64,000 nt of DNA from Escherichia coli (GTDB lineage Bacteria > Pseudomonadota > Gammaproteobacteria > Enterobacterales > Enterobacteriaceae). The translations under genes were made by a program, and so were the position numbers. Positions 14,694 to 62,344 of this stretch are shown piece after piece (position 1 is the stretch's first letter; each line of letters starts with the position of its first letter). The DNA is taken from the NCBI RefSeq assembly GCF_050920415.1, contig NZ_CP169309.1. One strand, written 5' to 3'. The notes under the pieces were generated by a model, which did no database searches, was not told the origin of the DNA, and was given only the letters and a program-made list of their open reading frames with translations.

Positions 14694-15137
14694 ATGGTTA
14701 TTAGTATTCGCCGCTCACGGCATGAGGAAGGGGAAGAACTGGTTGCGATTTGGTGCCGTTCTGTCGATGCCACTCACGATTTTTTATCAGCAGAGTATCG
14801 GGCCGAGCTGGAAGAGCTGGTACGTTCCTTCCTGCCGGAAGCGCCGTTGTGGGTCGCGGTTAATGAGCGGGATCGGCCGGTTGGGTTTATGTTGTTAAGT
14901 GGGCAGCATATGGATGCGCTGTTTATCGATCCTGATGTGCGCGGCTGCGGCGTGGGTCGGATGCTGGTGGAACATGCGCTCTCGATGGCACCGGAACTGA
15001 CAACCAATGTTAATGAGCAAAATGCCCGGGCGGTAGGGTTCTATAAGAAGTTGGGATTTAAGGTTACGGGACGCTCTGAGGTGGACGATTTGGGGAAACC
15101 GTATCCGTTGCTGAATCTGGCGTATGTGGAGGCGTAG
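14694..15137 (+). CDS. yjaB: GNAT family N-acetyltransferase
   Basis: 147-aa ORF with GNAT acetyl-CoA binding motif (RGCGVGRMLVEHAL); divergent from metA. Confidence 0.88.
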   Translation: MVISIRRSRHEEGEELVAIWCRSVDATHDFLSAEYRAELEELVRSFLPEAPLWVAVNERDRPVGFMLLSGQHMDALFIDPDVRGCGVGRMLVEHALSMAPELTTNVNEQNARAVGFYKKLGFKVTGRSEVDDLGKPYPLLNLAYVEA

Positions 15138-15200
15138 GCATTTTTTTTCTCATCCCGGTGAGCTGAACTTCAGGTTTCGTACCCACCAATGGTGACATGA

Positions 15201-15584
15201 TTATTTCTGCTTAAGCATTGCCATGACCGCACTATCACTGAGCACCACTGATTGCGCATGGATGTGGAAATGGCGATATTTCATTAACGTTGCACCAGCG
15301 ACCACTTCATGAAGAATGCGTTCCTCAACCTGTGACAAACCGCCCTCATTCATTTCCAGCGCGCTCACAACAATATCCATACGTTTTGCTGGCAAAAAAG
15401 AGTACCAGGGTGAACGTGGGTGGAGTTGCAAAACAAGATCTTGCAGAACTTTTTCTGCAACAAAGAAATTGGCGATTAACAGGCGCTGGTTACTGAAGGC
15501 AGCCTCTCCTGACACTTCACGTTTGCTTTCAAGATCGCGAACAGTAATTTGATTACGACGAATTTGGATATACAGAACTGACAT
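15201..15584 (-). CDS. yjaA: Stress-response protein YjaA
   Basis: Start placed at MSVLYIQIRRNQ (127 aa); the track ORF is extended 12 codons from a TTG that lies inside the rrnE terminator. Confidence 0.85.
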   Translation of the reverse strand: MSVLYIQIRRNQITVRDLESKREVSGEAAFSNQRLLIANFFVAEKVLQDLVLQLHPRSPWYSFLPAKRMDIVVSALEMNEGGLSQVEERILHEVVAGATLMKYRHFHIHAQSVVLSDSAVMAMLKQK

Positions 15585-15616
15585 GAGATTCCCTTCATCA
15601 TGCAAATAATTGATAT

Positions 15617-15646
15617 GCAAAAAACCCCGGCCTTATGGACCGGGGT
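15617..15646 (-). terminator. rrnE operon terminator
   Basis: Minus-strand hairpin aaccccggtccataaggccggggtt followed by UUUUUUG, immediately 3' of the 5S gene. Confidence 0.7.
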
Positions 15647-15658
15647 TTTTCTAATTTG

Positions 15659-15778
15659 ATGCCTGGCAGTTCCCTACTCTCGCATGGGGAGACCCCACAC
15701 TACCATCGGCGCTACGGCGTTTCACTTCTGAGTTCGGCATGGGGTCAGGTGGGACCACCGCGCTAAGGCCGCCAGGCA
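15659..15778 (-). rRNA. rrfE: 5S ribosomal RNA (rrnE operon)
   Basis: 120 nt matching the E. coli 5S sequence (TGCCTGGCGGCC...GGGAACTGCCAGGCAT) on the minus strand. Confidence 0.95.
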
Positions 15779-15871
15779 AATTCTGTTTCATCAGACCGCT
15801 TCTGCGTTCTGATTTAATCTGTATCAGGCTGAAAATCTTCTCTCAATCCGCCAAAACATCTTCGGCGTTGT

Positions 15872-18774
<2,903 letters not shown>

Positions 18775-18968
18775 TCACAACCCGAAAATGTTTCTTTCGA
18801 TTCATCATCGTGTTGCGAAAATTTGAGAGACTCACGAACAACTTTCGTTGTTCAGTGTTTCAATTTTCAGCTTGATCCAGATTTTTAAAGAGCAAATATC
18901 TTAAACATGACTCGTAAGTCATCTTTAACGATATCAAGGTCGGCGACTTTCACTCACAAACCAGCAAG

Positions 18969-19044
18969 TGGCGTCCCCTAGGGGATTCGAACCCCTGTTA
19001 CCGCCGTGAAAGGGCGGTGTCCTGGGCCTCTAGACGAAGGGGAC
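18969..19044 (-). tRNA. gltV: tRNA-Glu (UUC) in the rrnE spacer
   Basis: 76 nt: reverse complement reads GTCCCCTTCGTCTAGAGGCCCAGGACACCGCCCTTTCACGGCGGTAACAGGGGTTCGAATCCCCTAGGGGACGCCA. Confidence 0.95.
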
Positions 19045-19215
19045 ACGAAAATTGCTTATCACGCGCTGCGTGATATTTTCGTGTAGGGTGAGCTTTCATT
19101 AACAGAAAGCGAACGGCCTTATTCTCTTCAGCCTCACTCCCAACGCGTAAACGCCTTGCTATTCACTTTTCATCAGACAATCTGTGTGAGCACTGCAAAG
19201 AACAGTTCTTTAAGG

Positions 19216-20756
<1,541 letters not shown>

Positions 20757-20880
20757 AAAAGTTTGATGCTCAAAGAATTAAACTTCGTAATAAATTACGT
20801 GTTCACTCTTGAGACTTGGTATTCATTTTTCGTCTTGCGACGTTAAGAATCCGTATCTTCGAGTGCCCACACAGATTGTC

Positions 20881-20900
20881 TGATAAATTGTTAAAGAGCA
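20881..20900 (-). promoter_or_regulatory. rrnE leader boxA antitermination element
   Basis: Minus strand reads TGCTCTTTAACAATTTATCA, the rrn boxA consensus. Confidence 0.8.
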
Positions 20901-20940
20901 GTTGCGACGCGGCTTTCAGCTCACTGTCGCGAGGTGGCGT

Positions 20941-20968
20941 ATATTACGCTTTCCTCTTTCAGAGTCAA
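20941..20968 (-). promoter_or_regulatory. rrnE P2 promoter
   Basis: Minus strand -35 TTGACT, 16-bp spacer, -10 TAATAT. Confidence 0.65.
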
Positions 20969-21050
20969 CCCTGAATTTCAGGATTTTTCTCTTCAACCGA
21001 ACCGGCTGTTTGTGTGAAGTGATTCACATCCGCCGTGTCGATGGAGGCGC

Positions 21051-21078
21051 ATTATAGGGAGTTCTCCGCAGGCCGCAA
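21051..21078 (-). promoter_or_regulatory. rrnE P1 promoter
   Basis: Minus strand -35 TTGCGG, 16-bp spacer, -10 TATAAT followed by GCGC discriminator. Confidence 0.65.
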
Positions 21079-21249
21079 TAGAAAAATTGCAGAAAAATGA
21101 CTGACTGCTGCATTCCCCAGCAAAACCCCGCTTTATACCTTTTTACGCACAGAGTTATCCACAACCATCAATGTAATTTCTGTATTTTTCCCACGGTAAA
21201 CACTGTCAAAATTGTGATCACCATTGAAAGAGAAAAATTCGCGAGCGTT

Positions 21250-21271
21250 GCGCAAACGTTTTCGTTACAAT
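21250..21271 (+). promoter_or_regulatory. purHD promoter with PurR operator
   Basis: gcgcaaacgttttcgt matches the PurR operator palindrome (ACGCAAACGTTTGCGT), immediately followed by a -10-like TACAAT. Confidence 0.6.
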
Positions 21272-21372
21272 GCGGGCGAAAAATAAGGATGCCCCGTTAG
21301 GGGCGTTAGCTGAGTTTTTCGCGAAAAATTCAGCTAACGCTCTCTGTAATAGTCAAATCCAGGGGATTTACC

Positions 21373-22962
21373 ATGCAACAACGTCGTCCAGTCCGCCGCG
21401 CTCTGCTCAGTGTTTCTGACAAAGCCGGTATCGTCGAATTCGCCCAGGCACTTTCCGCACGCGGTGTGGAGCTGCTGTCTACAGGGGGCACTGCCCGTCT
21501 GTTAGCAGAAAAGGGTCTGCCGGTAACCGAAGTTTCCGATTACACCGGTTTCCCGGAGATGATGGATGGACGCGTGAAGACCCTGCATCCGAAAGTGCAT
21601 GGTGGCATTCTGGGCCGTCGCGGCCAGGACGATGCCGTTATGGAAGAACATCAGATCCAACCTATCGATATGGTGGTTGTTAACCTCTATCCGTTCGCCC
21701 AGACCGTGGCCCGTGAAGGTTGCTCTCTGGAAGATGCGGTTGAGAACATCGATATCGGTGGTCCAACGATGGTGCGCTCCGCCGCCAAGAACCATAAAGA
21801 TGTCGCAATCGTGGTGAAGAGCAGCGACTACGACGCCATTATTAAAGAGATGGATGCCAACGAAGGATCGCTGACGCTTGCAACCCGTTTCGATCTCGCT
21901 ATCAAAGCCTTTGAACATACCGCCGCCTACGACAGCATGATTGCCAACTACTTCGGCAGCATGGTTCCGGCTTATCACGGTGAAAGCAAAGAAGCCGCCG
22001 GTCGCTTCCCGCGTACGCTGAACCTGAACTTCATTAAGAAGCAGGATATGCGCTACGGCGAGAACAGCCACCAGCAGGCTGCCTTCTATATAGAAGAGAA
22101 TGTGAAAGAAGCCTCCGTTGCCACCGCAACCCAGGTTCAGGGTAAAGCCCTCTCTTATAACAACATCGCCGATACCGATGCGGCGCTGGAGTGCGTGAAA
22201 GAGTTCGCCGAGCCGGCATGTGTGATTGTGAAGCACGCCAACCCTTGCGGTGTGGCTATCGGCAATTCCATTCTTGATGCTTACGATCGCGCGTATAAAA
22301 CCGACCCCACCTCGGCGTTCGGCGGCATTATCGCCTTTAACCGCGAGCTGGATGCTGAAACCGCACAGGCCATCATTTCTCGTCAGTTTGTTGAAGTGAT
22401 TATTGCGCCGTCCGCCAGCGAAGAAGCGTTGAAAATCACCGCCGCTAAACAGAACGTACGTGTCCTGACATGTGGTCAGTGGGCCGAGCGTGTTCCAGGC
22501 CTTGATTTCAAACGCGTGAACGGCGGTCTGCTGGTTCAGGATCGTGACCTGGGGATGGTTGGTGCAGAAGAACTGCGCGTCGTCACCAAACGTCAGCCGA
22601 CCGAACAGGAGCTGCGTGATGCGCTATTCTGCTGGAAGGTGGCGAAGTTCGTGAAATCTAACGCCATTGTCTACGCCAAAAACAATATGACCATCGGTAT
22701 TGGCGCAGGCCAGATGAGCCGCGTGTACTCCGCGAAAATCGCCGGTATTAAAGCTGCCGATGAAGGCCTGGAAGTGAAAGGTTCGTCAATGGCTTCTGAC
22801 GCATTCTTCCCGTTCCGCGACGGTATTGATGCCGCGGCCGCTGCGGGCGTGACCTGCGTAATCCAGCCTGGCGGTTCTATCCGTGATGACGAAGTGATTG
22901 CCGCCGCCGACGAGCACGGTATTGCGATGCTCTTCACCGACATGCGCCACTTCCGCCATTAA
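21373..22962 (+). CDS. purH: Bifunctional AICAR transformylase / IMP cyclohydrolase
   Basis: 529-aa ORF starting [19 protein letters not shown]. Confidence 0.96.
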
Positions 22963-60218: not shown

Positions 60219-60412
60219 TCACAACCCGAAAATGTTTCTTTCGATTCATCATCGTGTTGCGAAAATTTGAGAGACTCACGAACAACTTTCGTTGTTCAGT
60301 GTTTCAATTTTCAGCTTGATCCAGATTTTTAAAGAGCAAATATCTTAAACATGACTCGTAAGTCATCTTTAACGATATCAAGGTCGGCGACTTTCACTCA
60401 CAAACCAGCAAG

Positions 60413-62324: not shown

Positions 62325-62344
62325 TGATAAATTGTTAAAGAGCA
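62325..62344 (-). promoter_or_regulatory. rrnB leader boxA antitermination element
   Basis: Minus strand TGCTCTTTAACAATTTATCA. Confidence 0.8.

Follow-up and report, generated by a model that had tools for sequence, protein, structure and literature searches.

The purHD operon covers the AICAR/ZMP step of purine synthesis, a step that many bacteria control by the ZTP riboswitch. In Escherichia coli, the established control of purHD consists of PurR repression only, together with a recently reported DnaA site. The locus studied here raises the question of what is meant by two hairpins that lie between the PurR-regulated promoter and the start codon of purH. A preliminary description of the window, by which we mean the whole stretch of 64,000 nt of E. 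coli DNA that was analysed, had offered them either as a leader structure affecting purHD expression or as a protein-binding site, and had proposed a comparison across enterobacterial purH leaders. The features on which the following argument depends are listed here, with positions counted from the first nucleotide of the window.

21250-21265, + strand: PurR box of the purHD promoter, GCGCAAACGTTTTCGT, which corresponds to the K-12 motif read on the opposite strand and is conserved across Enterobacterales
21266-21271, + strand: -10 hexamer TACAAT, adjoining the PurR box in all Enterobacterales loci compared
21291-21295 with 21300-21304, + strand: P1, a GC-rich hairpin with a 5-bp G/C stem and the loop GUUA
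21304-21319 with 21324-21339, + strand: P2, a long hairpin with the pair G21314·U21329 and the loop CGCG (21320-21323)
21339-21349, + strand: GCUCUCUGUAA, the GCUCU or CU-rich tract directly 3' of P2, a candidate anti-SD with weak boxA resemblance
21355-21369, + strand: ribosome-binding region with the local hairpin AAAUCC-AGG-GGAUUU, conserved in Enterobacteriaceae
21361-21366, + strand: Shine-Dalgarno (SD) sequence AGGGGA, inside this local hairpin
21373-22962, + strand: purH CDS, the first gene of purHD, an ORF of 529 aa annotated as purH in RefSeq E. coli
22962-24263, + strand: purD, the ORF downstream of purH
minus strand: rrnE operon upstream of purH, with the -10 of its promoter P1 at ~21050-21055, its promoter P2 at ~20941-20968 and its boxA at 20889-20899

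Regarding the transcript, the hairpins are assigned to the purHD leader because they are placed between the conserved PurR box with its -10 hexamer and the start of purH. The PurR box, TACAAT and the purH ATG (21373) all stand where they had been placed before, and the alignment of diverged E. coli lineages showed the PurR box without any change. For K-12, Cho et al. 2011 (PMC3159470) gave the purH-purD PurR motif as ACGAAAACGTTTGCGC. Judged by the spacing from the -10 hexamer, transcription of purHD would start at ~21277-21280, and the 5' UTR would then be ~95 nt long and contain both hairpins. Promoter conservation and the covariation itself, which is described below, both suggest that the hairpins are transcribed, since selection for RNA structure on the purH strand is itself evidence of transcription there. 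Flannigan et al. in 1990 and Aiba and Mizobuchi in 1989 reportedly mapped the 5' end of the purHD mRNA and noted a hairpin-forming dyad symmetry in the leader, which we take to be probably the structure analysed here.

On the rrnE side of this promoter the connection drawn earlier does not hold: the palindrome had been put just upstream of the Fis/UP region of rrnE P1, whereas it lies ~260-300 bp upstream of the rrnE P1 start and outside the Fis/UP region. A double DnaA box, TTACGCACA-gag-TTATCCACA, occupies 21143-21163 between rrnE P1 and the purH promoter; it is the in-vivo DnaA ChIP-seq site published as 'upstream of purH' (PMC11317965), and its perfect 9-mer is found in exactly one copy and one orientation in 44 Enterobacterales purH loci. 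Also upstream of the purH promoter, within a stretch variable among E. coli lineages, AATTGTGATCACCATT at 21210-21225 shows a 10-nt overlapping palindrome and a TGTGA motif resembling a CRP half-site. Four perfect boxA sites were seen on the minus strand (18883-18893, 20889-20899, 60327-60337 and 62333-62343), and therefore the window holds two rRNA operons, namely rrnE and a second one ~41 kb away.

The hairpin sequences quoted in the preliminary description are present in the window, and that of P1, gccccgttaggggc, is located exactly at 21291-21304. For P2, the palindrome centred on CGCG is there as described, but the quoted 30-mer begins at 21307 rather than 21306 and understates the repeat. 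An inverted-repeat search gives a DNA palindrome of 38 bp (21303-21340), the arms of which, 21303-21321 and 21322-21340, have 19 nt each and are 95% complementary with G21314/T21329 as the sole mismatch. The RNA stem is thus one of 16-17 bp with one G·U pair and a CGCG loop. It does not carry U-runs on both arms, as had been supposed, since in RNA the U-run is in the left arm only and the right arm bears an A-run. Among close-spaced inverted repeats of at least 15 nt, only four exist in the whole 64 kb, and this palindrome ranks first. The 61-nt segment with the hairpins folds at -29.7 kcal/mol, compared with -14.8 +/- 2.8 kcal/mol for dinucleotide shuffles (z = -5.3, with none of 200 shuffles as good), and for the entire purH leader the folding z against shuffles is -5.7.

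A direct repeat, GCGAAAAA, is also found in this region, at 21276-21283 and 21320-21327. Its copy at the presumed 5' end could pair without mismatch with UUUUUCGC (21315-21322), which belongs to the left arm of P2, and so compete with the right arm. A switch depending on the start site through GCGAAAAA:UUUUUCGC pairing, like that of pyrC, was considered and rejected, as the pairing is not conserved in other genera.

Within the species, the element is practically fixed. A 241-bp query over the region matched 5419 of 5426 complete E. coli genomes by BLAST, K-12 MG1655 included, in agreement with the earlier guess that it would be present in K-12, and in 5381 E. coli genomes the 60 nt that hold the hairpins show an identity of 99% or more. 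In diverged lineages, the DNA from the PurR box to purH does not vary, apart from a single strain with two substitutions, of which one falls in the P2 loop, whereas in the same alignment the DNA just upstream toward rrnE has many substitutions. The hairpin segment has one locus per genome; the median number of BLAST places is 2, and we read the second as a match of the palindrome to its own opposite strand. A repeat element of the REP/BIME or ERIC kind was rejected because the segment is single-copy, with a single + strand match in the window for the covariance model introduced below.

To go beyond the species, purH loci were taken from one genome per species and their upstream DNA was compared. 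The architecture recurs in Enterobacteriaceae, Erwiniaceae and Yersiniaceae, and weakly in Brenneria, always in the order of PurR box, TACAAT, A-rich start, GC hairpin, the base of the long hairpin CGUUAGCUGA...UCAGCUAACG, and then directly GCUCU. The leader structure is therefore kept well beyond E. coli, with compensatory base changes, which argues for a functional leader RNA structure. The compensatory changes were quantified in a trimmed alignment of the P2 base covering 34 species and 12 basal pairs: 91.2% of the cells are paired and 7 of the 12 pairs have changed on both sides, while none of 500 shuffles paired as well and controls with slid partners gave 25-34% paired. A metagenome scan using the PurR-box/-10 pattern added 58 distinct leaders, and with all 77 distinct leaders the outcome for P2 was the same (91% paired, 7/12 compensatory). 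Pair 32-49, for instance, is GC in 41 of these leaders, CG in 28, UA in 3 and UG in 2; pair 33-48 is CG in 25, AU in 7 and GC in 5, and also occurs in C·C and C·U forms. At the seventh P2 pair the metagenome leaders show new compensatory states, GUUAGGUGA/UCACCUAAC and GUUAGAUGA/UCAUCUAAC, and the C·C and C·U forms there look like intermediates.

Conservation is concentrated at the bottom of P2. The basal 10-12 bp are conserved in sequence as well as in pairing, and the apex ranges between species from a 4-nt loop to inserts of ~90 nt that lengthen the stem. Apex inserts of Erwiniaceae and Yersiniaceae have a common palindromic CU/GA-rich core, YUCUCUAUAUAGAGAR, and some inserts contain strong SD-like purine runs paired to CU-rich strands, e.g. 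AGAAGGAGGGAUU in Yersinia thracica. A P1-type hairpin abutting P2 is predicted in 71 of the 77 distinct leaders, with loops of 3-19 nt, and the variants that preserve the pairing include UCCCG/CGGGA and CCUC/GAGG, together with U·G and G·U wobbles that form pairs on the + strand alone.

A covariance model was built from 17 Enterobacteriaceae leaders. It found one + strand match in the window (21277-21375, 121.6 bits), and elsewhere all its + strand matches stood immediately before purH, the loci being those of Enterobacteriaceae, Erwiniaceae, Yersiniaceae and Brenneria; matches on the minus strand were weaker and are the echo of the palindrome. The model had no match in Vibrionaceae or Pasteurellaceae. 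In Vibrionaceae, purH leaders have a non-homologous long hairpin of their own, e.g. AAAGGUCUUUACCAAAACUGG...UUCAUUUUUGGCAAAUAUCUUU, in the stretch ~30-130 nt before the ATG. Here too the base is conserved and the apex hypervariable, and the hairpin ends ~25-35 nt before the start codon; it was missed both by the purH-leader covariance model and by Rfam.

Whether the selected molecule is RNA or DNA can be read from the wobble pairs. Across species, G·U pairs number 32 against 9 for A·C, and therefore the + strand RNA is the selected molecule. Comparison of the sequences makes us highly confident that a selected RNA structure exists on the purH strand. The protein-binding site on DNA that had been offered as the other choice fares poorly by the same measure: among species the two arms stand anywhere from 4 to ~90 nt apart, and with a spacing so variable and wobbles biased towards one strand, a DNA operator is unlikely. 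An operator for a dimeric transcription factor, or a second PurR box, was rejected on these two grounds; the arms resemble everted PurR half-sites, unlike an operator.

A role of the element as DNA or on the opposite strand might take two forms. It could be a palindromic operator or cruciform tied to purHp or rrnE P1, or P1 and the T-rich flank could terminate transcription on the minus strand and so keep antisense transcripts out of purHp and rrnE. Such a role would fit the perfect-looking 38-bp palindrome and the divergent promoter region next to rrnE, and the terminator scan indeed flagged GCCCCTAACGGGGC-ATCCTTATTT as terminator-like on the minus strand. Against it, besides the variable spacing, the wobbles valid only on the + strand and the distance from the rrnE P1 start given above, the P1 variants GGGGU and GUCCC would leave A·C mismatches if the minus strand were the one that folds, and the A-rich 5' flank is not next to P1 in many species. 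Both forms together are thus considered very improbable.

Turning to known classes of RNA elements, a search of Rfam 15 over positions 20800-21700 at E <= 10 gave no family for the hairpins; only a spurious mir-725 (23.8 bits against a gathering threshold of 76) and Ysr197 appeared, the latter, an rrn-leader family, as a sub-threshold match to the rrnE leader (20878-21111, 118 bits against a gathering threshold of 167). No Rfam family was found in 14 purH loci of other genera either, and literature searches on the purH leader, mRNA and promoter found no functional or comparative study of the hairpins. As far as found, the purHD leader element is hence a conserved cis-acting 5' UTR structure that has no RNA-family entry. 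The ZTP riboswitch (pfl motif) controls purH in many other bacteria of other phyla, and it shares with the purHD element the gene context and the position in a purH 5' leader. In contrast to it, the purHD element is a plain hairpin with a variable apex, lacks the pseudoknotted two-domain aptamer and the conserved internal loops, and has no Rfam match at the above cutoff.

An intrinsic terminator or attenuator on the purH strand was rejected as well, because no U-run follows either stem, the scan found no + strand terminator-like site at P1 or P2 (P2 is followed by CUCUCUGUAAUAG), and there is no conserved leader peptide. The leader peptide itself was rejected, the only uORFs being MPR* in E. 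coli and the non-conserved MRTKAKG* in other genera. This small uORF (MRTKAKG* or ...CDSKAKG*) is seen in Cedecea, Erwinia, Pantoea and Yersinia, where only 7-8 nt separate its end from the purH ATG; it has its origin in the conserved AUGCGAACCAAAGCCAAGGGAUAA, is without an SD of its own, and its frame is lost in Serratia. Mimicry of tRNA was rejected too: over 15000-22000 ARAGORN reported only the tRNA-Glu of rrnE and did not recognise the purH leader as tRNA or tmRNA, and the GGGGC/UAGCU likeness is by eye only.

With the structure assigned to the leader RNA, the next question is how it may act. The best explanation of the module as a whole, to which we give a chance somewhat short of even, is a conserved RNA structure acting in cis after transcription. 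As for a more specific form of it, attention is drawn to the CU tract, which lies ~20 nt upstream of the G-rich SD. Among the 34 species, T56, C57 and T58 never vary, and G54 and C55 hardly do. In E. coli the SD itself is predicted to be mostly paired, with an unpaired probability of 0.25. We tentatively propose, as a plausible model though one for which we would not claim the larger share of belief, that the leader is a cis-acting element of translation or stability in which the CU tract pairs with the SD and P1-P2 serves as the scaffold. In this model, the short GC hairpin P1 and the abutting long P2 would form a rigid stack that presents the CU tract; the tract would pair weakly with the SD (UCUCU with GGGGA), and this pairing would set or modulate the access of the 30S subunit and hence purH translation, with possible knock-on effects on the lifetime of the purHD mRNA. 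The hairpins would in this manner influence purHD expression, as had been suggested at first.

The comparative evidence on the CU-tract:SD pairing is mixed. One position covaries, being U-A in 36, C-G in 34, U·G in 4, A·A in 3 and C·A in none of the 77 leaders; this is essentially one phylogenetic split plus four wobble intermediates, three Yersinia rows fail (A·A), and the flanking pairs are invariant or unpaired. By partition function, SD accessibility is the same for native leaders and for shuffled upstream sequence (0.31 vs 0.31), and in-silico mutants of the CU tract or P1, or deletion of P1-P2, had no clear effect. In addition, U56 and U58 never become C, though C would pair better with G, which hints at sequence-specific recognition over simple pairing, and the conserved primary sequence of the P2 base is left unexplained by the anti-SD model. 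Compared with known 5' UTRs that sequester the SD (anti-SD, and the adhE type needing processing), the purH leader shares a CU-rich tract upstream that is able to pair with a G-rich SD, an SD predicted to be largely paired, and one covarying pair. Unlike them, its helix is short and wobble-rich, the candidate has no named trigger, and the accessibility calculations do not separate native from shuffled upstream sequence. An alternative 'rod' fold proposed by RNAalifold and RNAfold, in which the 5' CCCC of P1 pairs with the SD GGGG and the 3' GGGG of P1 with CUCU, lies within about 0-5 kcal/mol of the P1 fold; it was rejected, as it shows no covariation, and it is broken (U·U) in 11 leaders that keep P1.

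The conservation of sequence, beyond pairing alone, in the P2 base and GCUCU leads to a different reading, in which a trans-acting protein recognises the module as its RNA operator, and the P2 base and GCUCU form a binding site that controls translation or elongation. C33, for example, is kept even where its partner is mismatched. Concretely, it might be a degenerate site of the boxB-boxA kind, recognised like that of the suhB leader by NusB/NusE together with SuhB, NusA and NusG, or else a site for some RNA-binding protein outside the Nus set, or for PurH itself. The succession of a hairpin and GCUCU resembles boxB-AACU-GCUCUUUAACA of the rrn leader, and homologous sites come closer to boxA, namely GTTCTTTAATG in Brenneria (10/11), GCTCTTTATTG in Serratia and Rahnella (9/11), and CGCTCTTA in Erwiniaceae. 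The last is presumably the boxA core of the phage lambda nut site.

In E. coli, GCUCUCUGUAA agrees with the boxA consensus GYTCTTTAANA at 8 of 11 positions and keeps the critical C4, and its place, 23-34 nt from the ATG, is within ~50 nt of the start codon. The suhB leader boxA, described by Baniulyte et al. 2017 (PMC5725501), stands 29 nt from its start codon, so the distance is alike, and the purH leader shares with rrn boxB-boxA and suhB boxA the order of a hairpin and then GCUCU in a 5' leader. E. coli prs, which serves PRPP synthesis and belongs to the PurR regulon, carries a perfect boxA in its leader; a published boxA survey places such a site, GCTCTTTAATA, 18-48 nt ahead of prs/prsA both in E. 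coli and in Enterobacter. As regards PurH, a 2026 preprint recovered it in the E. coli RNA-binding proteome with no targets given, and autoregulation by PurH is conceivable.

Several points weigh against a protein operator, however. The E. coli site GCTCTCTGTAA has three boxA mismatches (positions 6, 8 and 9), and this variant stays unchanged throughout Enterobacteriaceae, contrary to what one would expect of a NusB/E site. Between families, conservation is limited to the first 5-6 nt, GCTCT(T), and the conserved P2 base of this putative site has no counterpart in boxA function. Moreover, the published boxA list, for which perfect matches were required, does not contain purH. CsrA finds no support among the candidates: purH is given 'No' in the columns of Potts et al. 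2017 taken as CLIP calls, that is, no CLIP-seq peak is flagged for it. There are GGA motifs on both sides of the module, one at 21287-21289 and the other within the SD, and the 5' one is absent in Serratia and Yersinia. In supplementary file 4 of the same study, the row of purH (b4006) is labelled 'stability and RNA', and its values of 9.97 and 4.91 look like mRNA half-lives (min) in wild type and csrA mutant. All these considered, we find the operator reading doubtful.

The length of P2 suggests in turn that it could be a processing site for double-stranded RNA, e.g. for RNase III, where a cut would take off the 5' portion of the leader and alter the stability or translatability of the purHD mRNA. 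P2 is a long near-perfect duplex, in E. coli 16-17 bp stacked on P1 and in Erwiniaceae and Yersiniaceae 25-45 bp with internal loops, so that, measured by the about two turns of an RNase III substrate, its length is marginal in E. coli and more than sufficient in other genera. A variable apex on a maintained long stem is typical of processing stems, and Vibrionaceae have an analogous long hairpin. However, in the accessible part of the list of RNase III sites the sole one in the purH-rrsE spacer falls in the rrnE leader (~21031) rather than in the purH leader, purH goes unmentioned in the main text of Altuvia et al. 2018, and RNase III does not need a conserved basal sequence. We regard processing as improbable.

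Much the same small probability is given to the hairpins being a structural 'insulator' that has no regulatory input, and only locks the upstream leader away from the ribosome-binding site or modestly protects the mRNA. Outside Enterobacteriaceae, the region -18..+12 is slightly more open in native leaders (~0.6-0.77, compared with 0.5-0.6 for shuffled upstream sequence), the P2 apex is free to vary, and there are no conserved internal loops like those of a ligand pocket, all of which would suit an insulator. The strict conservation of the basal sequence and GCUCU over three families, however, exceeds what an insulator needs, and P1 begins ~12-14 nt from the presumed 5' end, a distance at which protection by 5' stabilisers of the ompA type is no longer expected.

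What the module might mean for Enterobacterales depends on which of these readings is right. That purHD is under a post-transcriptional control not described before, with the module as its operator, is a long shot, of which two versions are conceivable. In the first, if true, a weak boxA read by the Nus complex would couple purine synthesis to rRNA transcription, alongside the boxA of prs. In the second, if true, the leader would be the site of a metabolite-responsive factor (PurH, or a ZMP- or folate-linked signal) that functionally takes the place of the ZTP riboswitch, which these bacteria lack. Even if the element is only structural, it would still be worth an entry as a conserved cis-element, and would explain the invariance of the leader in E. 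coli. With ~60 nt, it is a small and well-defined target for reporter and probing work. Taken together, a covarying leader in three enterobacterial families and an unrelated hairpin in Vibrionaceae suggest that a post-transcriptional layer may be missing from the present picture of purHD control.
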